A program made the translations under genes and the position numbers. From contig JAYWIR010000005.1 in assembly GCA_036172245.1 (NCBI GenBank), positions 3,472,001-3,536,000 on the forward strand: 64,000 bases of DNA. Reading direction: 5' to 3'. Below are positions 13,020 through 64,000 of this stretch, piece by piece; the stretch's first letter is position 1; every line of letters starts with the position of its first letter. Origin of the DNA: Raillietiella orientalis (Eukaryota). Below the pieces are notes generated by a model. It was not told the DNA's origin and ran no database searches. It was given only the letters and a program-made list of their open reading frames with translations.

Positions 13020-14330
13020 TGTGGCGCACTCGTGCTCGCAGCGCCGCCTCATTTTCCATCTTTTGGTGCCGCACCGGAAGTCTCATTCCTTTTTGTTTGC
13101 CTGGGAAGCCACAGGATGGGCCCGCGGAGTAGAAGTGGTTTTGGCCTTATTGCGATCCCCTTCTTGCACTTCCGCTGTGCCCTCTGTTTTTCGGACTCCG
13201 CTGAGCCCATCCGCGGCATCTTGTTTCCGCGTACGGTGGTGGGCGCAGTTGCGGCACGTGCCCAGCCCCCACGCCCATTGTTTTGCGGCTGCCCTGCCGC
13301 GAGATCGTCCGCGCTGGACTTTGCGAGCGTGGGTGCCCGCGGTTTGCACGCGTTCCGTTCCGCTTTTTTGCGGTACTCCTGCCGCGTGCCTTTCTTTTCT
13401 TTTTTTTGTGCCGCGACCTCTTTCGCGCGGCAAAGTCTCCTTGCCTCCTTTTTTTTTTTTTCATTGCAAGTTCTGCTCACTTTTTGAGATGTTGTCCGGC
13501 CTCCTTGCAGTAGCGGCATTTCAGAGAGGGTCATTTCTTCGGTCGATGCCCCTCCTTGCCGCACTGCCCGCACACGCAAGGCTTTACTGCGAGCTACAGG
13601 TAAATGACCGTGCCGTGCACCTGCAGCTCCGCAGGCAGTGATCGACGGTTCTGCGCCGTATTCCGTGAAGTGGCGAGTCCAATGTGGACAGAGGGAAAAT
13701 CCTTTAAAGGATTCGACCTTCTCCACACTGCATAAACCGTGGCGAATTTCGCCAACGCGTTGACGACCTCGCGGTCGCCAATCTCTGGCTCGATGTCGAA
13801 GAGCTGGACAATGAGAGAGCCATCCCTCCTTCCCGCCGATGGACAGAGGGGTACGGAGCACGTGCTGCACAAGTGCTGCGTACCTTCACGTATTCCATGC
13901 CACCAGCGGGCACGATGGCGAAAAGGTCATCCTCCTGCACGCCTACCCGGACTAGCGCAACGTTCAGCTTTCGTCCCGTTGTCCCAGTGAGTGTCCCATT
14001 CACCTTATGGGAAAGTGCAGGCCTGTAGCCTTGAGCGACAATAGCCTGTAACCTTGCATCGCTGGGATCTGATCCTGGGGACGACGCGGCGGCAGCAACG
14101 TCAGCGTATGACATCACCGCTGGCGAGGCAACTTATCCTGGGGCCGACTGGCAGTCAGTTGCTGCACATATGCAGCGGATGCGACAGCTTCGAATCCCAT
14201 TTAATCCTATCCATGGTTCGAGCAGGGAACTGCATGGATACCACACGCGGGAACTTCCAAGCGCCAGGATGGAAAAAAGGATGCTTAAAATTGCAGGCGC
14301 GGAGCGACCGAAAAACACGTCCGCTCTGGA
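13020..14330 (-). mobile_element. Element L: 5' end and frameshifted ORF1 of an A-type Tx1/L1-like LINE (3' part absent)
   Basis: SYADVAAA...AQGYRPALSHKV and VQLFDIEPEIGDREV..FATV are homologous to ORF1 of A. 5' motif GCGGACGTGT at 14315-14324. Confidence 0.85.
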
Positions 14331-14342
14331 GGCTGCCGAGAT

Positions 14343-15920
14343 TTCTCACCTCTTCACGCCGGGACGTTTCTCAAAATCAACCAGTCGGGAATTTGGTTTT
14401 CAACCCAGACCAAACAAACAAAAGGGGAAGTCCACCGGCACACAGGCCGGGATAACGGGAGTTCGGAACAGGGAGGGGGATCTGGGACAACAAAAAGAAA
14501 GTTAAATGCGGTGGGTTTGAGCAGGGGTCTTTGGGTTCGCTCCGGAAGGCACTGGGATGAGGACCAAAACACTGGAGAAGCTGCGGTGCGGACGGAGATG
14601 GAAAAAGAAACAAAATAAATAAATAAACAAACACATAAACAAAATAAAATAAATAAGGGTGGGAGAGATCAAGGTTCACCGGGGTCCGCCGTTCTTTACT
14701 GTCCATCAACCGGCTGTGGATGACAACTATCTCCTGCTTTTCTCTTCCGGGTGTGGCCACCTTGCAGCCGTCCTCATGTAGGCAGCAGCCAAGCGGTGGA
14801 CCTCCCTTCGCAGCGATGCCATCTCCATTCCGTGGTCGGCAGTAAGAATGACGCGAATGCAACGGACTGTTGCGACTACTGCGCCGCATGAAAGCCCCTT
14901 GCTCATGACGATACGGCGCAGCAGGTCCTTCGCAGTTTCTCCGTGGAGCGGGACAGCCATAGTGAGCCTCCGTTTCACTTTGCGAAGGACACCTCAGTCG
15001 AGTCAAAGGTGCGGGAACGATATGAAGGCCCCGCATCTCGACTAGTTTGGGGAGACAGCTCCCCCGGAAACGAGGCTTCGGCGCTGACTACACTAGAATC
15101 TCCAGTGCAAAAATAGCAGCACGTACTGTTTCTATCCTATAAGGAACACCGAGCTGTCTAAACAAGCGGGAGGGACTACTCGTTCCTCGAGGAGGCACAT
15201 TGAAAAGCTCGCTCTACCGGAGAAGTCCCTTAGCTCGATTAGGAAGAGTGGCGGCGTGCACAAGCTCCTTTGTCTTTTAGGCACCAAGGAGCTCGGTCCC
15301 TCCTGCGATGGTGGAGAAGAACTCCCACCCTGCCGGTAGGCAACTGTCCTTGCTTGCCCTAAGGGCAGAAAGCGGTGCGGCAAGGGTGATGGCGGTTAGG
15401 GGATTCCCCTTATGATCCTGCATGAACTATTCCAGAGAAGGACTCAGAAGAAGTCGCAGGCCTCGAAGATCTTCCGGACATATTCCTACATTAGCAGATC
15501 ATGACGCAACAGACTCCTGCTGCCATGCATAGGGCTGCAGGAGATCCTACGTTGGGCTTTCATCAGCGGGGCAACTTGCCTTAGCTGAAAACCAAATTCT
15601 TTTCTGATGTGCCGAAAATGCGCCGGGAACGTAAGCAGTCCTTCGCTGCCGATGCAGCGCCGAAGAAGAAGGCACGCAGGAAGACACCAGGGCGTCCATC
15701 AAAGTTTGCGCATAACGCCAGCATACGAAACTGCACCTGCAGTCCGATGTTCTCAATGGCCAGGATGCCCGAGCCACCATTCTGGAGCAGTGCCACCAAG
15801 TCTTTTAACCGAATACGGGCCTTGCAGTGCTCCACAGAGATTTGCGTAGAAGGCGCTGCGCTCAGACCATGAAAGGATGAGGAGGCGGGCAAATAAAAAA
15901 GACGGGGCGGAGGAGGGGAC
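14343..15920 (-). mobile_element. Element M: degraded 3' part (ORF2 C-terminus + 3' UTR) of an A-type LINE
   Basis: VPPACLDSSVF, GLSCGAVVATVRCIR and IGLQVQFRMLALCA match A ORF2. T-rich UTR and degenerate terminal hairpin at ~14343-14370. Confidence 0.8.
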
Positions 15921-15929
15921 TCTCGAGAT

Positions 15930-17277
15930 TTGCACCCCGGTAATGCTGGTATGTTTATTGAAAACCAGTTAGGAACACCGTTCCTAACCGAGATACAGCA
16001 AAAAAGAAGGAAAATGCCCCCGATGAGATAGTGGTCCCCCCCGTTTGCCTGGACAGCGAGATGTGCTGCTATCTTTACACTGGGGTTTCCACTATATCCG
16101 GAAAGGAGGACGGGAGCTGTCGAGCTCGAACAACGCGACGACGGGCTGCTGTTTATCACCCGGGTGCGCCGGGGCGTTAATTGCAAAACTATCCGGGAAC
16201 AGAGTTCCCGGACAAACGATACAGAAGAGACGAAGAGGGTGGAATCCTTGACACGCAGGTCGGTATACCGAAAGTCCAGAACGGGAAAGAGGGGACCACA
16301 AATACACTACTATAAAAAAAATAAAAATATGGAGGGCAGGGGTCAGGGGTCTTTGGTACGGCCGCTCCTTCCTTTCAGAGCCGGCGATGCATGCCGGCGA
16401 TCTCTCTCCTCACGTCCTCTAATAGATGGACCCACTCGGCAGCAGACGACATGCTCGCGCTGGCTAATCCGGTGGGCTGACGAAGGATGGCCAGCTTCTC
16501 CAACTCTCGGTGGGCCTTATCGATGGCGCGGGTGCAACACACGGTTGCAGCGACAGCACCCAAAGACAGGCCGCCTGGCGTGAAGAAGCGGCGCATCAAG
16601 TCCCTCGCGGTGTCCCCCTGGTGCAGGAGAGGTAAGGTCAGCCTCCGCCCAAGTCCTAGGAGGGCACCGCAGTCCAGGAGCAGGTGCGGGAGCGTTTCCA
16701 CTTCCCCGCACCACCTACAGTTTGGGGAGACAACTCCCCCGGTAACACGGTTCGTGCGCTGGTTGGAGTGAAAACCCCAATGCACCAGCATGATGACGTC
16801 CTGTTTCCAGTTCAGAGGGAACACAGAAGTGTTCAAACAGGAGGAAGGAACCACAAGTTCTTCGGGGGGCACACTCAAGTGTTCACTCCACCGAAGGAGT
16901 CCCTTCGAGATGTGGCGAGGAGTGGCGGCGTCTGCCAGCTCGCAAGTCCTCCAGCCGCCAATAGGTCGTGTTGTTCTGGTGCAGGCGATTTCCCATCTCG
17001 CCGGTTGGCAGCTATCATCTCGCCCTGAGGGCTTACAGCGCGTCGGCGAGGGGCGTGACGGCCAGGCGAGTCCACTTCTCCTGGCTGTTGCAGACCTCAT
17101 CCACCGTGCAGTACGAGGAGAGGTGAGCGCAATGGAGTTCCAGAAGCGAAACATCCTGTTGCTTTGCCGAGCCATGCAACGGTTCCTGCCAACAGGCTTC
17201 AAAGTTATTTTGGGCGGCAGGAGATCCATTCCTGGGCTGCCAGGAGCCGGTAGAGCGGTTTCAACGGGAAACCGAAG
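15930..17277 (-). mobile_element. Element O: 3' part of an A-type LINE
   Basis: ORF 16375-17346 contains ELADAATP..GLLRW..HWGFH..CRWCGEVETLPHLLLDC. AATAAA and terminal hairpin at 15930-15958. Confidence 0.85.
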
Positions 17278-18200
17278 CTTTGCGCCAGGGCGTTTATTTA
17301 AAACTCTTCTATACGTTTGTGGAACGAGACTTACCACCGCGAACACAACATTGGATCTGCCGGGTCGCCGGTACGTAGACCGCCTTGACTCTTCTCGGCA
17401 GCGGATGGGGATAAATAAAAAAAATAAGAAAAATAAGAAAAAATTAAAAAAATGAATATTTTGGAAGGCAGGTTACGGATCACTGTGCTCTGATAGGAGG
17501 GTCCATCCTTCCCAGGATGCCGTCGCGGTCCATCTGCATTCTACTCAGGTGGGACCATCGGATTGCAATTCGCAGGAAACGGACTGCAAACTTGATGGCG
17601 CCCCTTGCGTTGCTTCCTAAGTTGGCATCGCTCCATGCAGCCACAATCCCTCGGATGCAGCAAAGTGCTGCCAGAGCTGCGGCTGGTCGCATGAAGAGAA
17701 GCCGAAAAAAGTTTCTGGAGGGATTGCCAATCGGCATCCAGAGGGTCGTCGAAAGAATTTCTCAAAGGTGTCGGAAGGCAACGCAGTCCACATCCAGGTG
17801 CGGAAGGAATTCCCGTTTCCCGCATCTGGAACAGTTGGGGTTCACCTTCCCCAGCGTCCAGTGGCGGCGGCGCGCGCTGTAGGAGAGACCGTGGTGCAAC
17901 AGTAGGAGTTTCCCGACTCTTGTCACCTCAGGAAAAAGATGCTTGTTTTATTTAATACCAAGAGGTACTTCAGTTCATCCGTCGGGATGCCAAGCAGCTC
18001 TCCCCATCTCTGTGGTCCACGTGGAAGGACGCTCGAGGCTGTGGCGTCCGCCAGCTGTCCTATGGTTTCACCATTCATCGACTTCTCTCTGCATGCGATC
18101 TCGCAGGAGACGTGGGCATCCGGCTGCTATTTACCGCCCTTCTTAGAAAGGGCATCGACTTGACAAGGGGGATCGTCTCCGCCCACGTGCTTCCGCCGGC
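17278..18200 (-). mobile_element. Element N: 3' part of a C/S-type LINE inserted into O
   Basis: RSTWAETIPL...AAALAALCCIRGIVAAWSD...GILGRMDPP. 3' UTR with ctgccg..cggcag stem, and AATAAA at ~17293-17298. Confidence 0.8.
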
Positions 18201-18859
18201 TCTACTGTTGCAGTATTGGGGACTCCCCTGCAACGCCCGCCGACACCACTGGACCTGGGGAGCGGTCGACCCCAACTGCGTTAGGTGTTGGGAACGGGAG
18301 TCCCTCCCCCACCTCCTCGTTGATTGCGTAGGCCTTCGGCCCCTTTGGTTCCGCTTTGCCGCGGACATCGGTATCCCCTGCAGCAACCCCAGGGACGCTC
18401 TAAAAGCCCTCTTCGTTGCCGACGCCCTTCGGCCAGCGGCCTTGATAGCAGCCTTGTGCTGCCTCCGCGTAATCTTCGCCGGATGGAGCAAGGCTTCGGG
18501 AAGACCACGCGCCAAGGGTGCCATCCAGGGCGCCGCCCACTTCCTGAGGAGGACGTCGCGATGGTCCCACCTGGATCCGCGAATACAAGAAGAGCTTTCG
18601 GCATCCTGTGAAGGATGCAGCGGTCCCAGCAGCAACAATGATCCCTTTCCGTACCCTCCCACTTTTTCTTTTTTTTTGTTTTGTTTTTTTTTGTTTTTCC
18701 CCCTTCCCCCTGCTGCCGTGGTGGACCGTTCCGGTCTGCGAACCGGTGACCCGGCAGGCTCTGTGTTTCTTCGTGCGTGGCTGGAGCATTGTTCCAGCCA
18801 CAGCATGTCTTTGTTAAAGTTTGTTTTTCAATAAACGCCCAGACGAAACCCGGGTGAAA
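18201..18859 (+). mobile_element. Element Q: 5'-truncated 3' end of a G-type LINE
   Basis: QYWGLPCNARRHHWTWGAVDPNCVRC..LPHLLVDC is nearly the same as G. The 3' UTR matches G and ends AATAAACG...cccgggtgaaa. Confidence 0.88.
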
Positions 18860-20190
18860 ATCGAATGCCTTGTGCAAGTCGACTGCGACCGCGGTGCACG
18901 GCGTGCGGGTGCGACGCGGGACACGACAAAGCGACATACTGAGTTTCCTGCTCTTTAGCACCTATTTCGAATTGATGCTGGAGCGTACAGGGACACTGGC
19001 TTCCCAGTCGCGCGTATGTCTTGGCACGCTTGCCGTAAGCATACGTGGACGATATTCTCCTGCTCCTCCACCCATATCTATCCCGGCATGAGCATTCAAA
19101 GGCTTTTTGGAATTGCTCATTCGCGTGACGGGCCTGCTGGCTAACAGGCTGAATTCGTCCGCAATTCCATTTTGTGCGGCGTGGACAGGGCGATCGGACT
19201 CTGTTTTTCGTTTGGACGCCTACGGACCGATGCCTAATATACCTGGGCGTTATGTTGGGTAAGTTCTCCTCCGATCGTCTCCAGAAAGCAATGCATGTGC
19301 TAGGCTCGTTCTAAAGGCATGGATTCTGGTTTGCGGTTTGGAACACTTTCGTGGCATTCCTTGGTCCCCTTGTCTTTTTGCTTGTCCCCAGGCATATAGC
19401 ATCAGAAAGCAGAAAAAGTATTTTCTGGATGTCTCTCTAGGGAAAAGGGAAATCCTCAATGCACCTGGAGGACTTAGGCCCTGGGACGGCGGCTCAGTCG
19501 GTCCAACGCTGGGGCAAATGGCTGCGATTTCGAACACTTGCCCTCGTGACAAACTTCCGAAGCACTGCCTGGTACTGTTACTCCAGTTTTGAAGACTTGC
19601 TTTCGTGGCAAATCTCTGGAGAACCATCGGATGCCAAAGTGCTCGTCTTCTCGTTCAGCAATTTACTGGCAGCGTTGGACTCTCATCCTTCCTTGCGGGC
19701 ATTCCACGCATTTTCCTCCACTGAGGACTGACCTGAGACAGGTGGCCACGCTGGAGAGGGAAAAACGATGGATCTCTTGTCGTTTTGCGAGCGGAAATGC
19801 GGGGAAGTGCCAAGTTGCAGGAAACCGTTTGCACATGGGTGGGAATCTATGAGCCAAGCGCGGAGCAGTTGGGAAGTTTCCTGTACACGCGTAACTACAA
19901 CTAAACGCTCCGAGGGATCCCGGAAGTTCCCGCGAAGAGTGAATGGGCAAGCAGAACCCCTTCTCGCCTCCGTGATGCCCTCCTTTAGAGAGCACAGAAA
20001 CAGCAGTCTCACGGCTAGATGGGAAACTTCTGTGGAGATCTCCGGAAGGAGAAAATGACTGGGCGAGTAGAAAATGGGCCAGCTCCGAAACTCTGTGTCC
20101 TCGATTGCTCGACCTCGTAAACTTTTGCGTTGCAGGGTGCTACTGGGTATTGCGGAAGATCTGCCAGTGTCCCAGTGCTCAAACGACGCC
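18860..20190 (+). mobile_element. Element R: old, highly degraded RT/ORF2 fragment with a short inverted piece (18860-18893, antisense AVAVDLHKAFD)
   Basis: VHGVRVRRGTRQSDILSFLLFSTYFEL from 18894, followed by decayed homology to ORF2. The right boundary is approximate. Confidence 0.6.
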
Positions 20191-20199
20191 GAGACACCC

Positions 20200-21989
20200 T
20201 CACCCTCCCTTTGAAATGGCCGAAGTCGGTAGGAGAATTCTTCGATCTGCTCAGCCGCGGGACCGAACTGCAGGTTAACAGGGCGAATTCGTTGGTGGTG
20301 CCAGTAGGTGCGGCTTGGGCAGGGCAGCAGGAATGGGTCCGTCTGGGGATTTCCACGGCGAGGTGCCTCAAGTACCTTGGTGTGCCATTGGGGGACTACT
20401 CCCCTGTGGAAGCGTGGTCCAGCTGCCTTCAAAAAGTTGAGACGGCGATCAGCCCGTTCCTGGAAGGCAAGTTCCACTTGCCGGAACGGGCCGCGGTTTG
20501 CAACGCTTTTGCGGCCCCCATCCTCTGCCCCTTGCTTTTTCTTTGCCCCGCCCCCAGAGAATGTAAAAAGAGGACAAAGGACCTCCTCCGCATAGCTCTT
20601 TGGGGCAAGGGGAGGCCCCGAGTCCATTTGAAGGACTTGTGAGCTCCGCGTCGGGACGGCGGTCTTGGCCTCTTGACGCTGGAGCGCGTGGAAATCCAGC
20701 TGCGGTGGCGAACCCTCACCATCGCAGCGAAGATGTGGAGCACCCCTTGGTGCATTCCTGCCCGCCTCCTTGCCAGGCGTGTGTCCCGCTGCGAAGGACT
20801 GGCGTCGTTTCTTCTGTGCCCTGGCCGGAAGATTCGTAGATGCGGCCTAATGCTCGGGCGCATGGCAACCCTGGCGAAGGAGAACGGCTGGATGGTTTGT
20901 GGCCCCGTTAACTCCTCCGCCTGGCTGGAGGAGACTGCTGGCACCTGGGCCAAGCAAAACCAGAGGCGTGAAGATCCAATGAACTGCATGCGAATCGGCC
21001 CATACGCCAACCGCACCCTGCGGGAAATACTCGAATTTCTCCTTAGACGCAGGTGGGCGGAGACGACTCCCCTTGCCACGGCGATGCCCTGCCTCCGAAG
21101 GGCGCTTCACGACCGCCAGAAGTCGAGGTGGCAAGTCTCCTGCCGGATTGCAGGCAGGGAGAAGATGTTAAGCGGCTGGACCACAGGAGAACTGGCGGAC
21201 GCCACGACCCCGAGCGTCCAGCCGCGAGGATTGACGAGATGGGGCAAGCTGCTCGCCATCCCTACGGATATGCTGAAGTGGCCCCCGGTACTTAAGGAAT
21301 CCAGAATACTGCCCCTTAAGTGGCAAGAGACGGCGTTGCTACTGTTGCACTGGGGTCTACCCTGCAACGCGCGCCGCTTCCACTGGACGAGGGGAGCTGT
21401 GGATCCTGCGTGTGCCAAATGCGGGGAGCATGAGTCGCTCCCCTACCTTATTGTGGATTGTGCTGCCCTCCGACCCCTTTGGGAACGGTTCGGGACGACC
21501 CTAGGGCTCCCTACGGGCAGCATCCCCAGAGACGCTCTTCGGCCCCTCTTCGTGAAGGAAGCCCTGCAGCCAGCCGCAGCCATCGCAGCTTTGTGCTGCG
21601 TCCGAGGCATCGTGGCGGCATGGAGCGACTTCAACAACGAAGGAGTGTGTCCACACGCGAGGGATGTCATCCCATACGCCCAACGCTTCTTGAGGAGAGC
21701 TGCCGGATGGTTCCAACTGGGGAATATGCGGATGGACCTCGAGGGCTTCCTTCGACGGATGGGCCCTCTTCACAGCGAATAGTGATCCCTTCCCTGCTCT
21801 CCAACTTCTTTTTGTTTGTTTATTTTTTATTTTTCTTTTTGTTTTATCCCCATCCCCTTCACTGCTGAGGAACGCTACGCCGGGCTGCGTCTCGGCGTCC
21901 CGGCAGGTCCCGTGCGTATGGCCGTGTGCGGGACCATGTAGCGCGTATGCAGAGTTTTTTAAATAAATCCCCCGGGCGTACCCGGGTCT
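20200..21989 (+). mobile_element. Element S: 3' part of a C/S-type LINE
   Basis: ORFs 20130-20642 (KYLGVPLG) and 20673-21782 (CAKCGEHESLPYLIVDC). Ends AATAAA-cccgggcgtacccggg at 21962-21986. Confidence 0.9.
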
Positions 21990-22457
21990 AAACCCTTTAG
22001 GCTGGCAAGAAGGCCGTCAGGCGTCCGGCTTCCCCTTAGGAGTCGGCCACTTCCGACCCCGAGGTGGAGGCCGGAAGCACAGCTTACATCTCCACCGCAC
22101 CCCGCAAAAAGGCTGGACGAAAGTCCACAAAGCCCCGGAAGATCGTCTCCCCCGACGAAGGGGAAGAGATGGCTTCCGGAAGCGAGGGTGCGATGAGCAA
22201 GAAAAACTCACGGGACTCGTCGCCCGAGAGAATCCCACGCTCCGGCACGGAAAAGATGGAGGCCGAACAGGTGCTTTAGGTGCCTGAAGAGGCCTCCGTC
22301 CCCATGGACATCCCCAACACCTGCCCCGCGGCAGGTGCTGGAACGTCAACAGGCTAAGCGACGACGACAAGAGGCTGGACGTGGCAGCCTCTCTGGCATC
22401 CTTCGACCTGGAGCTGCTGCAGAAGATCCACGTGATCTCCTCAGATCAAACCCAGAT
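21990..22457 (+). mobile_element. Element T (left part): ORF1 end and endonuclease start of a B/H-like LINE, host of S and A'
   Basis: Homologous to B 33480-34025. Reads CWNVNRLSDDDKRLDVAASLASFDLELLQKIHVISSDQ. Confidence 0.85.
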
Positions 22458-25400: not shown

Positions 25401-25560
25401 GGATAATCGACCAACGTCCGCGTGCCTGGAGTAGGAGCGGGCCTGCAGAAAATCCCTGCTGTTGGCTACACCCTCTCCGAAGCCGCGCGGAAGCTGGTGC
25501 AAGGGAAACCGGCAGCAAAACTCGCGGACCGATCTTTTCACATCGTCCCAGTCGGCGAGC
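22458..25560 (-). mobile_element. Element A': A-type LINE, ORF2 (RT to C-terminus) with stops, plus 3' UTR
   Basis: ORFs 24786-25541, 23838-24779 (YADD), 23358-23837 and 22794-23288 are collinear with A ORF2. Terminal hairpin at 22458-22487. Confidence 0.92.
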
Positions 25561-28380: not shown

Positions 28381-29117
28381 AGCCCGGGATATCGAACGGA
28401 TCTCCGGTGGGCGGCTGTTGTGGCGTTGCGGCACCGCGAAATCAAGCGGTGTCGCCTTCCTGCTTCGGCCAGCCATCGAGACCGCAATAAAGGACGTTCG
28501 GTTCGATGACGCAGGTCGCGTCGGTCAGCTGACTCTCAGCTGGTCCGACTCTATCGACCTGGTCGTCACCAACCTATACGCTCCTAGCGGAAACAACGTG
28601 TTGAGGGCGAAGGCAAGAAGGGAATTCTACCTTGCCCTGAGACGCGATTGGCTGACCGATGCAGGAGTTCGCAAAGCGCACCTGATCGCAGGTGATTTCA
28701 ACCTGCGCCTGCTTTCAGGTGCGCCGGATACACTGAACGACCGTGTCAACGAGTTGTGCGCAGAAATGAACACGCGCAACTTGTTGGCCGGGGACACGGC
28801 CATGGAAAGCAGCATCGATCACGTGTACCTTGATCAGCACCTATGCTCTTGGGTGGGCAGGCGCGGCAAGGTACCATCCGTGCTGTCGGACCATGGTCGG
28901 ATCATGTTCGAAGTGCGTCCGCGCGACAAGGGCCCCCACTCGTCAGCGTGGCGTCTGCCAGGGGACTGGCTGAAGTTTCCCGACGCGGCGGAGCACCTCC
29001 GCGCGTTTATTCGGAGCTTCAGAATTCAGACACTTCAGGACTGGGACCGCTTCAAGCGGTCGGTCCAGGAGTTCTGCGACCAGTTCCCCCTGCATCGCCT
29101 ACCTGCGGGATTTGGGG
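28381..29117 (+). mobile_element. Endonuclease segment near-identical to B 39973-40698
   Basis: WRCGTAKSSGVAFLL..NLYAP..IAGDFN..IDHVY..SDH. Confidence 0.92.
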
Positions 29118-34025: not shown

Positions 34026-34055
34026 TTCTCACCCGGTCACGCCGGGGCGTTTATT
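34026..34055 (-). terminator. AATAAA followed by a CCCGG-N4/5-CCGGG hairpin forming the element 3' end; representative copy
   Basis: Found at about 12 element ends (14343, 15930, 17278, 18830, 21962, 22458, 29118, 34026, 43578, 43949, 53559, 61212); degenerate in the older copies. Confidence 0.75.
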
Positions 34056-39952: not shown

Positions 39953-39972
39953 AAACACGTCTGCACTGTACG
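39953..39972 (-). promoter_or_regulatory. Conserved 5' RGACGTGT motif, putative internal Pol II promoter (DPE-like); representative copy
   Basis: Occurs within ~5-20 nt of the 5' end of L, F, A'', B, A, D, C, H, G and I. Resembles the downstream promoter element of arthropod LINEs. Confidence 0.6.
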
Positions 39973-53543: not shown

Positions 53544-53558
53544 CGTAAAGCTGTCGAT

Positions 53559-56500
53559 TTTCACCCGGATTTCTCCAAGTCGTTTATTAAAAAAATAAAC
53601 TTTGTAAACAAATTATAAATGGCTGTGGCAATGCTCCAGCCAGAAGCTAAGAACCACAGCGCCTGCCAATTCACAGGTTTCTAGACCGGTACGGTCCACC
53701 AAGGCAGCAGGGGAAAGTGGAAAAACAAAAAAAAAACAAAAAAAAAAAAAGAAACTAAACAAAAAAAAACAAAGGGTGGGAGGGAACGGGAAGGGATCAC
53801 TGTTGCTGCTAGGGCCGCATCAACCCTCTCAGGATGCTGGCAAGCTCATGTTTGTTGTGAACATCCACGTTGGGCCATCGCGACGCCCTCCTCAGTAATT
53901 CGGAGGCGCACTGGATCGCTTCCTGATCGCTAGGTCCTCCCGTCGCCGTGCTCCAGACGGCGACGATCCCACGAAGACAGCACAAGGCTGCTATCGAGGA
54001 CGCTGGCCGCAGAGCGTCGGCAACGAAGAAGGCTTTTAGTGCGTCCCTGGGGTTGCTGCGAGGGATACCGATGGCCGCGGCAAAGCGGAACCAAAGGGGC
54101 CGAAAGGCAACACAATCCACTAGGAGGTGGGGGAGGGACTCCCGTTCCCCGAACCTTACACAATTGGGATCCACCGCTCCCCAGGTTCAGTGGTGTCGAC
54201 AGGCGTTGCAGGGGAGTCCCCAGTGCTGCAACAGGAATGCCGACTCTTGCCATTTGAGGGAGAGGATGGAAGTGTTCATGAGAATCGGGGGCCACTTCAG
54301 ATGTTCAATCGGAACATCCAGCAGCGCTCCCCAGCGCAGAAGTCCATTAGGAGGCGTACTCGGGGTCGCCGCATCAGTTAGCTGGCCCGTCTTCCACTCT
54401 CTATGCTTCTTCTCCTTCGCGGAGATTTTTATTGTAACCTCCCACTTCGCCGCAACATCGCTGTCCTGATGTTCCACTAGGGAGTCCAGCGCAGCGACGA
54501 GGGGGGTTCTTCCTGACCACGCTTTCTTCTTAGGATCCTCCAGGATCTCACGGAGCGTGCAACTTCTGTAACACCCAAACAGGAACCTTCGTTCCTGATG
54601 GGAGGGTTGCATGCCGAACTGTCCCCACGTACGAACGGTTTCCGGCAACCAGGCACTACCGTTCGCGGGGAGACAGGTGATCCATCCTTGATTTTTCCTT
54701 GCCAGCGCAGCCACCCACCGTAGCTGAAGCCCACATCGGTTGATGCGGCTTCGATGGAGTGCAAGAAACGACGTAAGTCCCGTCTTGCCGGTGGCTTGCT
54801 TAAGGAGGAGACGTGCAGGGACGCACCAACAGGTGCACCATAACTCCGGCACAAGTGCCAAAATCCGAAACTGGAGCTGCAGCTCCAGTTGCTCCAATGT
54901 CAGGAGGCGGAGACCACCGTTTCGACGCGGAGCGCACAAGTCCTTCAAGCGGACTCGGGCCCTCTCGTTGCCCCAAAGGGCGATACGGAGGAGGTCCTTC
55001 GTCCGCTTTTTGATCATCTCTGCGAGGGGGCAAACAAAAAGCAGGGAACGGAGGAAAGTAGCCGCGAACATGTACCAAACCGCGGCCCGTTCAGGCAGGA
55101 AAAACCTGCCGCCTCGGAACGGGCCGATAGCCGTCTCTACTTTTTGAAGGCAGCCGGACCACGCTTCCGCAGGGGAGTAGTCCCCCTACGGCACACCAAG
55201 GTACTTGAAGTACCTCACCGTGTAAATCTTCAAACGGACCCAGTCCTGCTGCCCTGCCTACGCCGCACCAACTGGCATCACGGACGACTTCGTCCTGTTC
55301 ACCTTAAGCCCGGTTCCTCGATTCAGCAAGTCGAAGAACTTCTCGACCGCCGAAGCCAAGGTGGACATAGGGAGCAGTAGCAGGAGGTCGTCCGCATATG
55401 CTGAAACCGCAGGCGTTACGGCGCATTCATGTGGCAGGTGCGCCAGAGTTTCCCTGTACGCTTTCAGTACCAACTCAAAGTAGGTACTGAAGAGCAAGGG
55501 GCTCAGGCTGTCTCCATGCCGGATCCCACGTCGCACCGGCACGCCGTGAACAGTATGCCCGCTGAAAGTAACATTGATAAGCGCATCGCGCCAGCTAGAG
55601 CGCAGATAGGCCAATGATGAGGCCGGGAAGCGAAAGCGTTCCAAAAGCTCCAGCAGGAGATTCTCGTCGACGCTGTCGAATGCTTTACGCAATTCGACTG
55701 CGACCGCAAGTGCTTCCTCCCCCATCCGACCATCCGTCGCATGACTGACGGACTCACCGGAATTCCCGTTGCGCATCAAGCCCCTTTCGTGTTGGAGCTC
55801 TAGCCAGGTGGAAGCGTGGAACAGGTTCGCCTCCATGCTTCGCCCCGGAACAGCGTATGTATGTTCCGGGCTGATGAAGGCGTTTGCAACCCTTCCCAAA
55901 CGCTCAGCACAAACCTTAGCTATCAACTTGACATCCGCATTCACTATTGTGATGGGACGCCAGTTGTTCATGCTCCTCAGATCTCCTCCCTTAGGGAGAA
56001 GCCGCACCTTTGCCGAACGAAACGAGGCGGGAACGTCACCTGTCTCGCGTATCAGCAAGGTGAGTTGATGTACCAGTGGGGTTAGCTCAGCCGCGAAAGT
56101 TTGATAAAACTCCGCGGACAGGCCGTCCTCCCCTGGAGCCTTTCGCCTCTTGAGCTTTCCGATGGCCGAGATGATCTCGCCCATCGTTAAAGGCTCGTCG
56201 AGGGACTTTTTCTCTTCTTCCCCGATCGCAGGAGCGCCTTCCGGAAGCAGGATTCGTGAGAAATCCCGCTCGAGAGGCGTTCTTCCGTACAAAGAGGAGT
56301 AAAAACGCCGCAGCAGACCGCGGATCTGAGCGGGTGCCGAATGCTCCTGGCCTTGATCGTCCAGTAAGCTGGCCGATCCTGACTGCCAGGCTTGCCTTTC
56401 GGCTCCCGTTTTGTATTCCGCCAACCTGCGGATGTCGGGGGTCCTGGCGTAACGGCGAGCTTGCAGATAGGCTCGTTCGTTACGTACCCCGTCCCCAAAT

Positions 56501-59147
56501 CCCGCAGGTAGGCGGTGCAGAGGGAACTGGTCGCAGAACTCCTGGACCGACCGTTTAAAGCGGTCTCAATCCTGAAGTGTCTGCATCCTCAAGCTCCGTA
56601 TAAACGTGCGGAGATTCTCCGTCGCGTCCGGGAGCTTCAGCCAGTACCCTGGAAAACGCCACGCTGAAGAGGAGGGGCCCCTGTCGCGCGGATGGATCTC
56701 GAGAACAGGCGGGCGATGATCGCACAGCTCGCACGGTAACTTGCCGCGCCTGCCCACGTGAGGGCAAAGATGCTCGTCAAAAAACACGTGGTCAATGCTG
56801 TCTTCCATCCTCGGTGCACTGACCAACAAATTACAGGTGTGCAGCGCCATGCACACCTCCTTGACCAGGTCACGCTCGGGATTCTGCCCATCTGGTTTCA
56901 GGCGAACGTTGAAATCGCCTGCAACCAGATGGGCATTCCGCACGCCTGCTTCGGACAGCCATTCTCGCCGGAGGGCAAGGAAAAACTCTTTCCTTGACCT
57001 CCTGGTCATCAAGTCCCTGCCGCTCGGTGCGTACACGTTCTTGACGGTCAGATCGATCGAGTCGGACCACCTGAGAGTCAGCTGGCCGACACGACCGTGA
57101 TCGTCGAACCGCACGCCCCGAGCCGCGGCCTCGACGGCTGGCCGAAGCAGGTAGGCGACACCGCAACTTTTCGTTCTCCCACACCTGTACCATAGCTGCT
57201 TTCTGGAGATCCGTTCGATCTCTTGCGCTTGTTCAGCAGAGATCACGTGGATCTTCTACAGCAGCGCAAGGTTGTAGGACTCCAGAAGGGCGGCCATGTC
57301 ACGTCTCCTGCCGGCGTCTGTCATGCTGTTCACGTTCCAAACCGCGATGCGTAGTCGACGGCGGGAGGAGATTCCCGGCATTACTGCTGGGAAGTTTAAT
57401 TTTCAAGGGAGCCCGCCTCTTGCGAGGCGGGCGGGATATCCATGGGGGTTTCGGCCTTCTCAGGCACCTGAGGCACCTGTTCGGCCTCCGCTTTCTCCAT
57501 CCCCTCCGTTTTCGCGCGTGGGAGTCTCTCGGGCGACGGGTCCCGCGAGTTTCCCACGCTCATGGCACCCTCGCTTGCGGAAGCCGTCTCTTCCCTTTCG
57601 ACGGGAGAGATGAGCTTCCTCGGCTTTGTGGAATTACGTCCAGCCTTCTTGCGGGGTGCCGTGGAAACGGAGACTGCGCTTCCGGCCTCCACCTCGGGGT
57701 CGGAAGTGGGGGACTCCTGAGGGCAGGTCGGACGCCTTACAGCCTTCTTGCCAGCCTTGAAGGGTTCTGGCTGCAACGAGGCTGCCAGCTCCTCCGCGGC
57801 TCGCGCGAAGGCTACGTCATCGATGCTGGTGTCGTTGACGGACGCCGCCGCCGGCTCGCTCCCCTCGCTGTTGACTGTGTCAACAGAGGGGAGGTCGTCG
57901 GAAACGGCGAGTTGTTTCCGGGAGCGTTCAGCAACATCGAGAACGCGTTCGACAACGACGCTGCACTCTTTATTTATCGCGCTACCCTGCTCTTTCTTCT
58001 TTTGTTGGTAGGCGATTTTTTTTCCATCCTCCTCTCCTTCTTCGATTTTTTGGCCGTTGCCACTTGCCACCCAGTCTCCTGGCCGGCTCCCTCAACTTTT
58101 TCGGCGTTGGTCGCCGGGGTCTCGGATGCGGCCTGGGTTTTGGGCGCGGGTGGCACAGCCTTCGCGGCAGCTTTTGCCGCCAGCCTTTTCTGCAGAAGCC
58201 GGGCACGTTTTTTAAGGTTTCTCATGGAAATCACCCGCACTGCTGCTTTTGGGCACACCTCACTCGTGTGACCCATTGTGCCCCATACTTGGCACTGCAC
58301 TTTGGGACACCTCGTTTTGAGGTGACCCGACGTATTGCAGAAGCCACAGTATTTCGGCTTCCCCTCATACCAGAGGTCGACGGTTTCGCCTTTGACCACC
58401 AGATTGTGGCGAAGAGTGCAGCCCTGCCGAACGGTCACGTGCGCAGCCGTAAGGCCGTGTTGCAGCCTTGTGTAGTCCTCGAAAGGACTAACTTTCGTCC
58501 ACTGCGCGTGGACCGTTCCGAACTGTTCCAAAGCGGCGCGAACCTATTCTATGCGCATTCGCGCAGTTACACCTAACAGGTGGACCACCATGCTGCGGTC
58601 CGCCGTAGTGGGGAGGAGCCTACGCGTTCTCATCACAACGAGGGTTTTAAGCAGTAGTTGAGCCAGCTCTGCAAGTTTGCAGATGACCTGAACGTACTGA
58701 CCCCCGCTGCGGATGGTCATAGCGCTGAGCTCCTCCTCTTTCACATCGAGAGCGCGCATGCCCTTCGAAAAGGCGCGCGCGCTCTCTAAAGAATATAGAT
58801 TGCCTACCTTGTAGAACAATGAGGGGTTATACCCCTCCTCTACATAGGCCGACAATTCCGCCGCGACTGCAGGCGATGGCGCCGACACAACGGCCCTCCA
58901 CGCCCGCGCTGTAGAGGGGACCGATTCTGTGGGGGCGAATGCCTCTACCTCCAGCGCCTCTGGGGACGATGTTGCCGCCGCCCCCTGGCTCTCTATCGTC
59001 TCTGAGGGCGGCGTTGCCGCTGCCCCCTGGCCATCCCTGGTGGTCGCGTCAGGCATCGCTGCCTGATCGACCATCGATCCACACGACGCTTCCACTGGGG
59101 GAGGCTTCCTGGCAGGAGCACCGAGAAAACACGTCCGCCCTAGAGCG
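53559..59147 (-). mobile_element. Element G: full-length G-type LINE (degraded), inserted antisense into the RT of J
   Basis: ORF1 ~57381-59056 and ORF2 ~53809-57381 in fragments (GDFN, RKAFD, YADD). Flanked by cgtaaagctgtcgat (53544-53558) and cacaaagcgttcgat (59148-59162). Confidence 0.92.
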
Positions 59148-61240
59148 CACAAAGCGTTCGATTGCGTGGACCAGGAACTCCTTCTGGAGCTCCTGGATGT
59201 CATGGGCTTTTCGGACACGTGAACGGTCTACCTGCGGGCCTGTTGGCGCAATGCGATCATCAACATGTTTTTCAGAGGAGAGCACGTGTTCGTCGTGCCG
59301 GTGAGGCGCGTTATTCGGCAGGGCGACAGCATGAGTCCTATGCTCTTTAGCACCTATTTCGAACTGGTGCTGAGAGTATACAGGGTAACATTGGCTGCCC
59401 TGCCAATCTCGTGTCCAGGTACGCCGGCCGTAGCGGCTTACGCCGATGATCTTCTTCTCCTTTTGCCCATGTCCGCCCCGGCAGCCGCAGTCGAGGATTT
59501 CTTCGATCTGCTAAGCTGCGGGACTTGACTACGGGTAAATAAGTCGAAGCCATCAGTGGTAGCGGTTGGTGCGACGTGGGTCGGACGTCCTGACTGGATC
59601 CCCTTGAAGATTTTCACGGAGAGGTACTTGAAGTACCTTTGCGTTCCGTTGGAGGACTTCTGCCAGTCAGAAGCCTGGTCAGGATGTCTAGAAAAGTGGA
59701 GTCAGCGATAGGCCCGTTTTTCTAAGGCAAGCTTCACTTGCCGGAACGGGCCGCGGTGTGGAGCGCGTTCGCGGCTTCCCTCCTTCGCCCTCTGCTTTTT
59801 GTTTCCCCCGTACCCCGTGAACTGAAAAAAAGAACAAAGGACCTCCTACGCATCGCCCTGTGGGGCGGCGGGAGGCCTCGTGTGCCTTTAAAGGATTTGT
59901 GCGCTCCACGTCTGGACGGAGGTCTTAGCGTCCTGACGATGGAGCGAATGGAAACACAGCTGCGGTGGCGCACTCTAGCCATCGCAGCGAAAATGTGGAA
60001 CACCCCTTGGTGTGTTCCAGCCCGCCTTCTCGCCAGACGTGTGTCCGGGACTGAAGGACTCGCGTCTTTTCTTCTGTGCCCCGGCCGGAAAATAAGAAGA
60101 TGCGGACTTCTCCTGGGACGCATGGCCACCCTGGCAAAGGAGAGCGGGTGAATGGCCTGCAGCCTCGCCAACTCCAGCGCATGGCTGTAAGGAACAGTTG
60201 GAACGTGGGCAAAGTTGAAACACATCAGTGGAGAATCCTGCAACCGCCTGCGCACCGGCATCTACACCCTCTGCACGCTGCGGAACATGATCGTGTGTCC
60301 CGTCAGAAGCACTTGGGCGGAGAGGACCCCACTGGCCACGGCGCTGTCCTTCCTACGAAGGGTGCTTCAAAACAGCCGGAAGCCGAGATGGCAAGTCCCC
60401 TGCCGGATAGCGGGCAAAGAGAAGGATCTAAGCGGGTGGACAATGAAGGAACTGGCAGACGCCGCAACCCGAAGCGTTCACCCGCATGGAATACGGAGAT
60501 AGAGCGAGCTGCTTGGCATCCCGGCGGATGACCGAGAGTGGCCCCCGTTGTGCCTTTTCCACTCTCCCCCTCAAGTGGTAGGAAACGGCGCTGTTGTTGT
60601 TGCACTGAGGTCTTCCCTGAAACGCGCTCCGCCACCACTAAACGTTGGGGAACGTCGAACAGAACTGTTCAGTGTGCGGGGAGAAGAAATTTCTCCCCCA
60701 TCTGTTAGTGGACTGCACTGCCCTTCGGCCCTTGTGGGAACGTTATGCTACGACCCTCCCTATGCCGGTCGGCAGTACCCCCAGAGACGTTGTGAGACTC
60801 CTCTTCGTGCGAGACGCCCTGCCACCAGCCTCAACCCTGGCAGCGCTCTGCTGCCTCCGAGGGATTGTGGCCGCCTGTAGCAAAGCTAACAGAGGAAGCA
60901 GCGACAGAGACCCCATCGTACACGCGGGTCGCTACTGGCGAATCGCGATCGGCTGGTCCCATCTGGGAGCTATGACGAGGGACCTCGAGGGCTTCCTGGA
61001 AAGCATGGTCCCCTCCTCCAGCGGGCTGTGATCCCTTCCCTGCCCTCCAAATAGTTTCTTTTTGTTATTTCATTTATTTTTCTTTTTGTTTTATCCCCTA
61101 TCCCCTCCGCTGCCGAGGAGGACAAGCTGGCCTCAGAACCGGCTTCCTGGCAGGTCCCATGAAATATTGGCCGTAGCAGGGCCTAGTACCGCAAATGTAA
61201 AGTGTTTTTTTAATAAACGCCCCGGCGTGACCGAGTGAAA
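59148..61240 (+). mobile_element. Element J: RT-to-3'-end part of a C/S-type LINE
   Basis: Starts HKAFDCVDQELL; RQGDSMSP, YADD, CSVCGEKKFLPHLLVDC; ends AATAAACG-cccggcgtgaccgag-tgaaa. Confidence 0.9.
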
Positions 61241-62749
61241 ACTTCCCCGTGTCCAGTGATGACGGGGTAAATTGCAAGGCAGTGCCCAGTGCAACAGCAT
61301 CAGCGCCGAATCCTGCCATTTTAGGGGAAGGATCCTGGTTTCAGTTATTACTGGGGGACACTTCATGTCATCAGTCGTGATGCCGAGCAGCTCGCCCCAT
61401 TTTTTTAGTCCTCGCGGAAGGACGCTATGGGTTGTGGCGTCCGCTAGCTGTCCCATTGTCCAACCGCTCAACAGTTTTTCGCTGCCTGCGATACGGCAAT
61501 TGACTTGCCACCTCGGCGTCCGGCTGCTGACGATTGCCCTACGTAGGAAGGGTAGCACCGTCGCCAGGCAAGTCGCTTCTGCACACGTGATTCTGGCTGG
61601 ACACTCCACGATCTTGCGTAGATTGCAGCGGACGTATCGACCGCGTCGCAGCCTATTCCATGTCACGTGGCTCCTTTTATTCACTACAGCCCATGTGTCA
61701 ACTGTTTTATCCAGCCATGCGCTGGAGTTGACGGGGCTGCAGATCAGCCAAGCATTCTCCTTAGCCAGGGTGGCTATTCGTCCGAGGAGAAGGTTGCATC
61801 TTGTCTTCCTTCCACGACATAAAAGAAGAGATGCGAGTCCTCCCGTTCCGGATACACGTCTGGCGAGTAAACGGGCGGGAGCACACCAGGGGGTGCTTCA
61901 CAGCTTGGCTGCGATGGCCAAGGTTCGCCAACGCAGCTGAATTTCCATGCGCTCCAGCGTCAGGAGGCCTAGACCACCATCACGACGCGGAGCGCACAAG
62001 TCCATCAAAGGGACTCGAGGATTCCCCTTGCCTCAAAGGGCGATGAGCAGGAGGTCCTTGATCCTCTTTTTTATTTCTCTGGGGACGGGGCAAACAAAAA
62101 GTAGGGGGCGAAGGATGAGAGCCGCAAAAGCGTTCCATACTGCGGCCCGTTCCGGCAAGCGGAACTTCCCGTACAGGAAAAAGCGGATCGCCAAATCCAC
62201 TTTTTGGAGACGGCCTAACCATGCTTCTGAAGAGGATAAGTCCCCCAGCGAAACGCCAAGGTACTTCAGATGCGTGCTCGTTGGGATCCCCAGGCGAATC
62301 CAGTCTGGCCGTCCCACTCACGTCGCTCCAACTGCCGCCATCGACGATTTTGCCCTGTTGACCCGTAGCCCTGTCCCACGGCTTAGCAGGTCGAAGAAAT
62401 ATTCGACTGCTGTTGCCGGGGCGAACATTGGCAGCAGTAGCAGGAGATCGTCGGCATATGCGGACACGGCAGGCGTGCCATGGCACGAGCTTGGCAAGGC
62501 AGCCAAAGTCATCCTGTATGCTCTAAGCAACAACTCGAAATAGGTGCTAAAGTGCAGGGGACTGATGCTATCGCCCTGCCGAATCCCGCGGGGCACCGGC
62601 ACGCCGTACACGTTCTGCGCTCTGAAAGAGATGTTTGTTAACGCGGCTCGCCAGCAGGAGAGCAGGTACGCCGTTAATGTAAGAGTGAAGCCCATGTAAT
62701 GCAGAAGCTCTAGGAGGAGCTCCTGGTCCACACAGTTGAACGCCTTGTG
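61241..62749 (-). mobile_element. Element K: RT/C-terminal part of a C/S-type LINE, bounded by J and I
   Basis: HKAFNCVDQELL, RQGDSISP, YADD, KYLG; broken at HHWTRGS by the 3' end of J. Confidence 0.9.
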
Positions 62750-64000
62750 CGCTCCAGGGTGGACGTGTTTTCTCGGTGCTCCTCGTGCCAGGAAGTCTCC
62801 CCCAGTGCAGGCGTCGTGTGGTTCGGTGGTCGATCAGGCAGCGATGCCTGACACGACCACCAGGGATGGCCAGGGGGCAGCGGCAACGCCGCCCCCAGAG
62901 GCGATGGAGAGCCAGGGGGCCACGGCAACGTCGCCCCTAGAGGCGATGGAGGTGGGGACATCCGTCCCCACAGAATCGGTCAGCGCTGCAGCGCAAACGT
63001 GGAGCGCCCTTGTGTCGGCGCCATCGCCTGCAGCCGCGGCGGAATTGTCGGCCTATGTAGAGGAGGGGTACAACCCCTCATTGTTCTACAAGGTAGGCAA
63101 TTTATATTCTTTAGAGAGCGCGCGCGCCTTATCGAAGGGCATGCGCGCTCTCGATGTGAAAGAGGAGGAGCTCAGCGCTATGACCATCCGCAGCGGGGGT
63201 CAGAACGTTGAGGTCATCCGCAAACATGCAGAGCTAGCCCAACGACTGCTTAAAACCCCCGTTGTGATGGGGACGCGCAGGCTCCTCCCCACTACGGCGG
63301 ACCGCAGCATGGTGGTCCACCTGTTAGGCGTCACCGCGCGAATGCGCAAAGAACAGGTTCGCGCCGCTTTGGAACAGTTCGGAACGGTCCACGCGCAGTG
63401 GACGAAAGTAAGTCCTTTCGAGGACTACACATGACTGCAACACGGCCTCACTGCTGCGCGCTTGACCGTTCGGGAAGGCTGCACTCTTCCCCACAAACAG
63501 GTGGTCGAAGACGAAACCGTCGTCCTCTGGTATGTGGGGAAGCCGAAATACTGCGGCTTCTGCAATACGTCGGGCCACCTCAAAAAGAGGTGTCCCAACG
63601 TGCAGTGTCAAGTATGCGGCACAATGGGTCACACCAGGGAGGTGTGCCCAAAAGCAGCAGTGCGGGTGGTTTCCAAGAGAAACCTTAAAAAACGCGCCCG
63701 GCTTTTGCAGAAGAGGCTGGCGGCGAAAGCTGCCGCGAAGGCTGTGCAACCCGCGAACAAGACCCAGGCCGCAACCGAGACCCCGGCGACCAACGCCGAA
63801 AAAGTTGAGGGAGCCGGCCAGGAGACTGGGTGCCAAGTGGCAACGGCCAAAAAATCAAAGAAGGAGAGGAGGATGGAAAAGAAAATCGCCTACCAACAGA
63901 AGAAGAAAGAGCAGGGTAGCGCGATAATTAAAGAGTGCAGCGTCGTTGTCGAACGCGTTCTCGATGTTGCCGAACGCTGCCGGAAAGAACTCGCCGCTAC
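62750..64000 (+). mobile_element. Element I: 5' end and ORF1 of a G-type LINE (runs off the window)
   Basis: cgctccagggtggacgtg start; MPDTTTRDGQG...; very similar to G ORF1; in-frame stop at 63432. Confidence 0.92.

Follow-up and report, generated by a model that had tools for sequence, protein, structure and literature searches.

How does a stretch of genome come to consist solely of pieces of related retrotransposons, many of which end at the same few codons of one another? The question is raised by a 64,000-nucleotide segment of contig JAYWIR010000005.1 of Raillietiella orientalis (positions 3,472,001 to 3,536,000 of the forward strand); this whole segment is called the window, and all positions below refer to it. 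From 13049 to its right edge at 64000, the window is tiled without gaps by 20 pieces of long interspersed nuclear elements (LINEs) and three host remnants of 14-34 bp, in agreement with an initial annotation made from the DNA letters, which had described about 51 kb composed only of some 20 nested LINE pieces. The tiling was obtained by tblastn searches with the two intact open reading frames (ORFs) of one full-length element, A2, by self-blastn, by piling up the ends of high-scoring segment pairs, and by direct reading of the junctions. The G+C content is 0.54-0.62 over the 51-kb island, as opposed to 0.41-0.52 over the preceding flank of about 13 kb.

The answer that we consider highly probable, judging by the junctions and the comparisons between copies, is endonuclease-directed, site-specific retrotransposition of these LINEs into the reading frames of their sister LINEs, reciprocal between clades. 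The initial annotation had proposed just this, with the ORFs of sister retrotransposons as the target and the sites partitioned by subfamily, and within the window the proposal is supported both by the independence of the insertions and by the recurrence of their sites. The LINEs involved encode an apurinic/apyrimidinic-type endonuclease (APE) and a reverse transcriptase (RT), and amino-acid identities divide them into at least four clades: A/C (A2, A1, C, A4, A3 and A5, with 66% amino-acid identity between C and A2 in ORF2); B, with the subtypes L (Lb2, Lb1 and Lb') and H (Hb2-Hb5), which share 66% in ORF2; D (D and D6-D9, with mutual amino-acid identity of 53-72%); and E, of which E7 is the lone member.

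Insertion sites shared by different elements

Sites are numbered by amino acid (aa) in the stop-to-stop ORF2 frame of A2, which places QAAEI at 62, GDFN at 164, LEDWD at 280 and HKAFD at 579. The endonuclease motif QAxEI is occupied at three loci, by A2 within Lb2, by A1 within Lb1, and by the tandem of A4 and A3 on either side of a 14-bp remnant. The 12-bp target-site duplication (TSD) of A2 is found at 34014-34025 and 39973-39984, with 11 of 12 bases identical.

At HKAFD there are five junction ends from four H-type elements, Hb2 to Hb5. The 5' end of Hb3 and the 3' end of Hb2 flank a 15-bp remnant; the 5' end of Hb2 meets D8 exactly at the His codon of the motif, and the 5' end of Hb4 meets D9 at the identical codon; the 3' end of Hb5 again adjoins a remnant. 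The TSD of the H-type elements is 15 bp long, its copies around Hb2 lying at 53544-53558 and 59148-59162. Because the 15-bp remnant is the only DNA between Hb3 and Hb2, this site has been hit twice in tandem by H-type elements. The left copy of the Hb2 duplication (53544-53558) is similar to the RKAFD codons of the H-type itself; a read-through transcript may have brought it along from a donor locus.

The LxDWD motif holds two L-like elements, Lb2 within D and Lb' within A1. The 8-bp TSD of Lb2 (32123-32130 and 43607-43614) is identical at 8 of 8 bases, and the 5' end of Lb' in A1 lies within 2-4 bp of the position used by Lb2. One more recurrent site is in the C-terminal part of the B-clade ORF1, where the 5' end of D in Hb3 and the 3' end of D7 in Lb1 are found, both in the sense orientation; placed on the intact Hb2 and Lb2 sequences, the half-sites have about 15 bp in common. 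The GDFN motif is used by C within D, with a 9-bp TSD at 43940-43948 and 49858-49866, identical at 9 of 9 bases, and has been seen occupied once. This GDFN site (43920-43948 and 49867-49890) is also flanked by a 10-bp inverted repeat, GGCTCACCTG ... CAGGTGAGCC, which may be due to chance.

These read-outs reproduce most of the site list of the initial annotation. Its A-type inserts at QAxEI (three loci) are A2, A1 and A4/A3; its G-type inserts at HKAFD (four junctions) return as H-type, with five ends from four elements; and its B-type inserts at LxDWD (two loci) are Lb2 in D and Lb' in A1. The ORF1 site, listed there as possible and C-type, is indeed recurrent, with two elements, and its inserters are typed here as D-type. 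The majority of nestings are antisense, as had been noted with a count of 10 of 14, which now becomes 12-13 of 16.

The correspondence between families and sites is one to one, A1-A4 being found at QAxEI, Hb2-Hb5 at HKAFD, and Lb2 and Lb' at LxDWD. Orientation is fixed within each family, and each has its own TSD length (A, 12 bp; H, 15 bp; L, 8 bp; C, 9 bp). In the window, the multiply used sites hold nine of ten 5' junctions and seven of 11 readable 3' junctions, and 12 of the 15 elements with a readable end share their insertion site with another element. When 16 elements were placed at random, in either orientation, along an element of 5.9 kb, an average of 0.34 elements shared a site, and 12 was reached in none of 200,000 simulations. 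The targeting is reciprocal, as the initial annotation had suggested: in the window both directions can be read between A and L (A-type elements in L, an L-like element in A) and between D and the two B subtypes (H and L in D, D in H and L). The order of nesting fits the apparent ages, with the innermost element, A2, being the intact one.

Empty counterparts of the occupied sites were sought in public sequencing runs, using Logan contigs. One run (X1) contains 0.48 of the sampled words of 34026-43600; with a likeness of at least 85%, 426 of its contigs could be placed on 33727-53726. As only 34 of them are at least 99% alike, many must be paralogues. The X1 junctions and contigs described here are those among the matches listed. 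At least one contig passes directly from 34023 to 39983; the 5959 bases left out correspond to A2 plus one TSD copy, and the contig thus displays a precise empty QAxEI site. At least two others (depths 16.3 and 4) run from a region homologous to A2 through 21-23 letters to 43607/43609, and in the first of these the 21-23 letters are D's own LxDWD sequence; both apparently represent D-type sequence in which Lb2 is missing and the 8-bp TSD is present once. In at least one further contig a LINE 5' end, best matching that of C, is followed by five letters and then by Lb2 at 40690, the first of the very 10 bp with which Lb1 terminates at the 3' end of D (29107-29116); this suggests a further recurrent site at ORF2 aa ~305, putatively with a 10-bp TSD. 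A joint between 43948 and 50138, on opposite strands, was also found in X1. Apparent joints between A2 and C (skipping about 9.9-10 kb) and between 42165 and 45457 were discarded as paralogue alignments that hop between homologous elements. Runs X2 and X3 of the same study gave only short low-complexity matches, and the parts left uncovered there say nothing.

The junctions are consistent with the following scheme. Several related APE-type LINE families would build the island by target-primed reverse transcription, the endonuclease of each nicking one specific sequence inside a conserved coding motif of another family. Both ends of the insertions are precise, and the 5' ends are full-length. 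For the antisense inserters the priming 3'-OH would be on the host sense strand, with the A-type nick after ..GAGAT in QAxEI, the H-type nick after ..TTCGAT in HKAFD, and the L-type nick directly 5' of GGACTGGGAC (DWD); the second nick would fall 8-15 bp away, at a distance fixed for each family. C and the D-type insertions at the ORF1 site are in the sense orientation. The TSD contains the recognised sequence a second time; an insertion therefore leaves the site usable for a further hit, which accounts for the head-to-tail tandems with TSD-only spacers, at 14329-14342 between A4 and A3 and at 53544-53558 between Hb2 and Hb3. Specificity probably resides in the APE domain, and pairing of read-through RNA with the target, which has been proposed for other site-specific LINEs, possibly helps to register the cDNA. 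Codons of conserved catalytic motifs would be favoured, since the host family cannot easily change them, and the LINE population itself would be a multicopy safe haven. With the population as its own target, the island would seed itself, each hit inactivating a relative.

A bolder version of the scheme, which we offer as a tentative possibility, is a closed "homing network", in which the only landing sites of these LINE clades would be the codons of one another's endonuclease and RT catalytic motifs (GDFN, KAFD and others), with an arms race fought by synonymous escape. At QAxEI, the A2 and C elements themselves carry the codons GAA-ATC (37766-37822 and 47670-47726); the L, H and D sites and the 14-bp remnant have GAG-ATC (57196-57252, 50141-50197 and 14329-14342), so that every site hit, or capable of being hit, reads GAG-ATC. 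The GAA/GAG difference adjoins the putative A-type nick. Of the 14 bases of the remnant, 12 agree with the corresponding site of A2 and 8 with the L site. GAA-ATC in the A clade could represent escape by synonymous change, in a sample that is far too small.

Independence of the insertions and competing explanations

Several observations weigh against site-specific targeting as the complete account. The 3' junctions of D-type elements (n=3) are at three places, the ORF1 site, aa ~305 and aa ~1079, and no second user was seen for the sites of C, D8 and A5. Four joints (18197, 18894, 20219 and 26825) link internal points of two elements without a terminus and may have arisen by deletions, template jumps or recombination. 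The two flanks of D, antisense in Lb1 at aa ~305 on the 3' side and sense in Hb3 at the ORF1 site on the 5' side, are not colinear. The two copies of the Hb2 TSD differ at 4 of 15 bases, and many homologous sites in the window are unoccupied (six HKAFD, five LxDWD, four QAxEI and five GDFN). It follows from the internal joints, the non-colinear flanks and scattered 3' ends of D, the Hb2 mismatch and the empty sites that deletion, recombination or cDNAs bridging two cuts have acted as well. The sequence was matched in a single public run (0.48 of the sampled words), maybe from the source sample or a close relative, and both the putative endonuclease specificity and any restriction of targeting to LINEs are read, provisionally, from the window junctions and a few X1 contigs. 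As a separate observation, the 3' ends of A5 in F (16152) and of D8 in D9 (61242) lie about six codons apart, both antisense and just upstream of the C-terminal CCHC of ORF2; these two unrelated ends were not counted as one shared site.

Some of these points would fit elements that are drawn to the region itself, for example to centromeric or heterochromatic chromatin, an attraction that has been proposed for Zepp-like and Grem-LINE1 islands, and that have only a short nick preference, the motifs recurring by homology because all of the DNA is LINE. The island is indeed pure LINE DNA with G+C above that of its flank, like the clusters of Zepp (PMC3446292, in the portion of that article available); D-type ends fall at three different places, an ..AT^ nick context is common to three inserters, and the junctions compared are those of the window. 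A preference for 4-6 bp, however, would offer several sites per strand in every 6-kb element, and the scatter expected within families is not seen for A, H or L: four A-clade, four H and two L-like elements each keep to one site, one orientation and a fixed TSD with base-pair precision. Regional attraction is therefore unlikely to be the explanation.

A still less probable alternative is that segmental duplication, inversion and gene conversion copied a small number of first nestings, and as the sole explanation it is refuted. Rearrangement joints are present in the island, and one block has the expected character: 26825-29116 and 38417-40700 (an A 5' end and its host, 2.3 kb) share 97.0% identity across the insert and 97.1% across the host, through the junction, with ratios of nonsynonymous to synonymous divergence (dN/dS) of 0.79 in the insert and 0.68 in the host. 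It is the only such block and is best read as a recent duplication or conversion, which makes A1 a mosaic. Single nestings that had been copied should have host and insert equally diverged, an outcome that the initial annotation had named as contrary to its reading; tested on the present data, this expectation fails for every site.

At HKAFD, the inserts Hb2 and Hb4 show 92.5% identity (1.24 kb) and the corresponding hosts, D8 and D9, 73.7% (1.46 kb), so that host and insert divergence are threefold apart (26% versus 7.5%). The synonymous divergence (dS) of D8 and D9 is 0.88 and their dN/dS 0.27 (477 codons), a sign of purifying selection which indicates that they are separate products of active lineages and did not decay in place. 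The tandem of Hb2 and Hb3 likewise represents two events, given a dS of 0.77 and a dN/dS of 0.16. At LxDWD, one host is of clade D and the other of clade A. As for QAxEI, the ORF2 part of A1 differs from A2 with a dS of 0.178 and a dN/dS of 0.28 (918 codons), which makes A1 and A2 different retrotransposition products; A2's 1190-codon ORF2 is intact despite a dS of 0.18 from A1, and for these reasons the left junction of the A1 locus is an event separate from the A2 locus. The A4/A3 tandem is a third locus. Across the copies compared, dN/dS values of 0.16-0.28 speak for divergence in active lineages and not in place. Lb1 and Lb2 were compared by direct alignment; the comparison of their left flanks (50 codons), too short and poorly aligned, was left unused.

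Even less credible is switching of the RT between templates, or homologous recombination, at conserved motifs without endonuclease targeting. Such motifs do supply microhomology, and the four internal-to-internal joints listed above are of the kind that it could produce. It predicts sense-to-sense chimeras at equal coordinates in both partners, yet the recurrent junctions join a true terminus to an internal host motif, mostly in antisense and with TSDs, and for A2 and Lb2 there are TSD-flanked full-length inserts with matching empty sites. Finally, an assembly artefact in a repeat-rich region is the least probable of all: among the X1 matches listed no piece spans a junction by 31 letters or more on both sides, but the copies differ by 3-35%, which makes collapse or chimeric joins unlikely, and the TSDs and empty-site contigs fit real insertions.

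Structure of the elements and of the window

Site-specific retrotransposition into sister LINEs, the reading retained here, draws on elements with well-defined ends. A 5' terminus around GGACGTGTTT is common to all clades, and the corresponding motif, with one mismatch at most, has 10 matches in the window, all 10 of them element starts. The 3' terminus of all clades lacks poly(A) and is made up of AATAAAC, a stem rich in G+C and a short tail that is specific to the family; allowing four mismatches, 16 matches are found, of which 12 are read as true ends and four as look-alikes within coding sequence. The proposed 5-bp GC stem is neither supported nor refuted: RNAalifold picked a different small stem, and the proposed one pairs in 85.5% of cells without covariation, no better than shuffles (265 of 500).

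The A2 ORF2 protein combines an N-terminal APE endonuclease (Pfam Exo_endo_phos, E 6.9e-11) with an RT (RVT_1, E 9.4e-21), and the zinc knuckle of the ORF1 protein is recognised as zf-CCHC (E 2.2e-4); zf-RVT scores 15.3 bits in A2, against a cut-off of 27.5. Its closest relative of solved structure is human L1 ORF2p (E 3.1e-45), followed by R2 proteins at about 1e-13, and the A2 endonuclease domain matches that of L1 with E 4e-6. The endonucleases of R1Bm and TRAS1, which have solved structures, are absent from the 15 structure matches to A2 ORF2 at E of 0.01 or less. Among proteins in the database, A2 ORF2 has 113 matches with best identities of 20-31%, the nearest of which carry RVT_1, Exo_endo_phos and zf-RVT; there is accordingly no close relative and no second genome for comparison. 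A protein atlas returned only generic RVT, endonuclease and zf-RVT clusters, and a metagenome scan found one locus, 1,216 bases long and 35% identical, which was of no use. No Rfam families and no tRNAs were found in the window, and hence no RNA-gene target and no known 5' ribozyme. The island elements are APE-type LINEs, putatively of Tx1 or another L1-group lineage.

Features of the LINE island, from left to right; nested elements follow the element that they split
Feature	Position	Strand	Description
A3/A4 tandem	13049..15921	-	Head-to-tail pair of A-clade elements, in the order A3, remnant, A4
A3	5' end at 14328	-	ORF1 only
QAxEI-type remnant	14329-14342		14 bp between A3 and A4
A4	3' end at 14343	-	ORF2 aa 788-1186
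Older rearranged stretch	15922..20218		F, A5, D6, Hb5, 34-bp remnant, E7
F	15922-16151	+	
A5	16152-17282	-	
D6	17283-18199	-	
Hb5	18197-18859	+	3' end adjoins 34-bp remnant
AVAVDLHKAFD remnant	18860-18893	-	34 bp, next to the 3' end of Hb5
E7	18894-20218	+	
D7	20219..21991	+	D-type 3' part, aa ~689 to end; 3' end in Lb1 at ORF1 site, sense
Lb1	21992..29116	+	L-type host fragments 21992-22457 and 28380-29116, split by A1; left border, 3' end of D7 (ORF1 site); right border, 3' end of D (aa ~305)
A1	22458..28379	-	Mosaic A-type copy; in Lb1 at QAxEI; interrupted at LxDWD by Lb'
A1 3' part	22458-25560	-	ORF2 aa 280-1201, three in-frame stops
Lb'	25561-26824	+	L-like insert in A1 at LxDWD
A1 5' part	26825-28379	-	ORF1 aa 1-482
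D	29117..52101	-	D-type, three pieces (29117-32130, 43607-43948, 49858-52101), split by Lb2 (with A2 inside) and C; 5' end in Hb3, ORF1 site, sense; 3' end in Lb1, ORF2 aa ~305, antisense
Lb2	32131..43606	+	Full-length L-type (B-clade), divided by A2 into 32131-34025 and 39973-43606; lies antisense in D, immediately upstream of LxDWD
A2	34026..39972	-	Full-length A-type LINE, 5.95 kb (5,946-5,947 bp); antisense in Lb2 at QAxEI
A2 ORF2	34379-37984	-	Open frame, Exo_endo_phos and RVT_1; 1190 codons, intact
A2 ORF1	37951-39861	-	Open frame, zinc knuckle
C	43949..49857	-	Full-length A-clade LINE; sense in D at GDFN
Hb3	52102..53543	-	5' 1.4 kb of H-type LINE; cut at ORF1 site by the 5' end of D
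HKAFD remnant	53544..53558	+	15-bp target copy; sole DNA between 5' end of Hb3 and 3' end of Hb2
Hb2	53559..59147	-	Full-length H-type (B-clade); 3' end adjoins 15-bp HKAFD remnant, 5' end adjoins D8
D8	59148..61242	+	D-type host, HKAFD to its own 3' end, which joins D9 ~6 codons upstream of C-terminal CCHC
D9	61243..62749	-	D-type host, from HKAFN at aa 579 as far as aa ~1079; interrupted by Hb4 at HKAFD
Hb4	62750..64000	+	5' 1.25 kb of H-type LINE; continues beyond window edge

To the left of the island, positions 2577-4552 (+) contain three consecutive ankyrin-repeat frames (Ank_2, E 3e-24 and 3e-49). The ankyrin unit corresponds to the 99-bp tandem repeat at 2677-2990. The C-terminal part of these frames has a weak match to PRANC (E 0.0032, below the cut-off) and is 47-48% identical to two database proteins with PF09372 (PRANC). 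Because the frames are interrupted, the gene may be broken or spliced. A weak RT-like fragment lies outside the island at 7007-7363 (+), with 26% identity to aa 373-491 of A2 ORF2, and a 209-bp repeat is found at 7149-7357 and 10241-10447 (87% identical). The flank between 6 and 13 kb, with G+C of 0.46-0.56 and open frames without Pfam matches, may hold other, unrecognised repeats.

Comparison with known site-specific and clustering LINEs

The closest precedents for the choice of target come from the Tx1 clade; here and below, the cited articles are compared on the basis of the portions available. Crocodilian Tx1-Mar families target a Mariner transposon (Mariner-N4_AMi) at two positions, often in tandem, with antisense insertion at position 240 and sense insertion at position 830; other targets include the Tx1D transposon for Tx1L, LTR (long terminal repeat) retrotransposons for Tx1-8_Crp and Tx1-4_AMi, and, for some families, Harbinger (PMC4494074). 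Target specificity is accepted there when more than 20% of flanks are the target (PMC4494074). The island elements are similar in being APE-type LINEs that insert into another transposable element, with different families at different positions and in fixed orientation, and within the window and the few X1 contigs independent copies have one target, one orientation and a fixed TSD, as in the Tx1 cases. The difference is in the target, which for Tx1 is a DNA transposon, an LTR element, a small RNA gene or a microsatellite, and here is the conserved coding motif of a sister LINE from the same superfamily, in a reciprocal manner.

As to the island itself, the Zepp clusters of green algae are said to grow by nested insertion that targets existing copies, in arrays made mostly of 3' ends left by frequent 5' truncation (PMC8226300); they are G+C-rich and present once per chromosome (PMC3446292), and Chlamydomonas has a single ZeppL family (PMC9940879). 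The region from 13 to 64 kb, fully tiled in this way, is likewise a G+C-rich island of nested L1-type LINEs inserted into existing copies. In contrast to Zepp, 10 precise full-length 5' ends are found among its roughly 20 elements, so that 3' ends do not dominate the array, and at least four clades target one another at base-defined sites; the available descriptions of Zepp mention no codon-level site.

Grem-LINE1 of Mucorales, defined by at least 30% identity over at least 50% coverage to the Mucor element (10.1101/706580), is confined to gene-free, LINE-rich pericentric regions, and one cited copy is 5,927 bp long (10.1101/706580, PMC7377519). In the portions of these descriptions at hand, it resembles A2 in size, in the zinc knuckle of ORF1, in the AP endonuclease and RT of ORF2, and in a poly(A) signal near the 3' end. 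The ORF2 of Grem-LINE1 is also described with zf-RVT, for which A2 stays below the cut-off. The comparison is one of descriptions, and no database protein exceeds 31% identity to A2 ORF2.

Among site-specific LINEs in general, R1 and R2 in 28S rDNA and other rDNA-, telomere- and snRNA-specific families insert at a single exact position of a multicopy sequence that is conserved. They share with the island elements the precise junctions and the disabling of the target unit by insertion; their target, however, is a host gene family under host selection, whereas here it is a parasite that renews its targets by transposition. A loose analogy could be drawn with homing endonuclease genes and mobile introns, which occupy conserved catalytic motifs of host genes: there too the target codons are not freely changeable by the host, the mechanism and the molecules being entirely different.

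The initial annotation knew of no described case of such targeting. For sister LINE motifs proper this stands: in the full-text literature searched there were no LINE families specifically targeting the coding motifs of sister LINEs, the supplementary Tx1 target tables of PMC4494074 lying outside that search. In a broader sense the idea has more precedent than the initial annotation supposed, in view of Zepp (PMC8226300) and of Tx1 in Mariner (PMC4494074), as far as the available portions describe them. LINEs that target transposons and LINE islands that target themselves are thus both known, and the variant seen here is the reciprocal use of sister LINE codons.

If the closed homing network is real, the retrotransposon population would be parasite and habitat at once, a self-assembling island in which each hit kills a competitor, and self-seeding could be a general origin of LINE-only islands, whether Zepp-like, Grem-like or possibly centromeric. 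Site-specific retrotransposition into sister LINEs would in itself provide a base-level mechanism for the nucleation and growth of such islands, whose Zepp- or Grem-like clustering has so far been described without one. Competition between transposon families, with insertional killing and possible synonymous escape, would become directly testable, and the island would offer a natural set of close APE endonucleases with differing specificities of 10-15 bp, of use for the evolution of target choice and for retargeting LINE insertion tools. Compared with the known systems, the haven would be the coding sequence of a sister LINE, instead of a host multigene family or another class of transposon.

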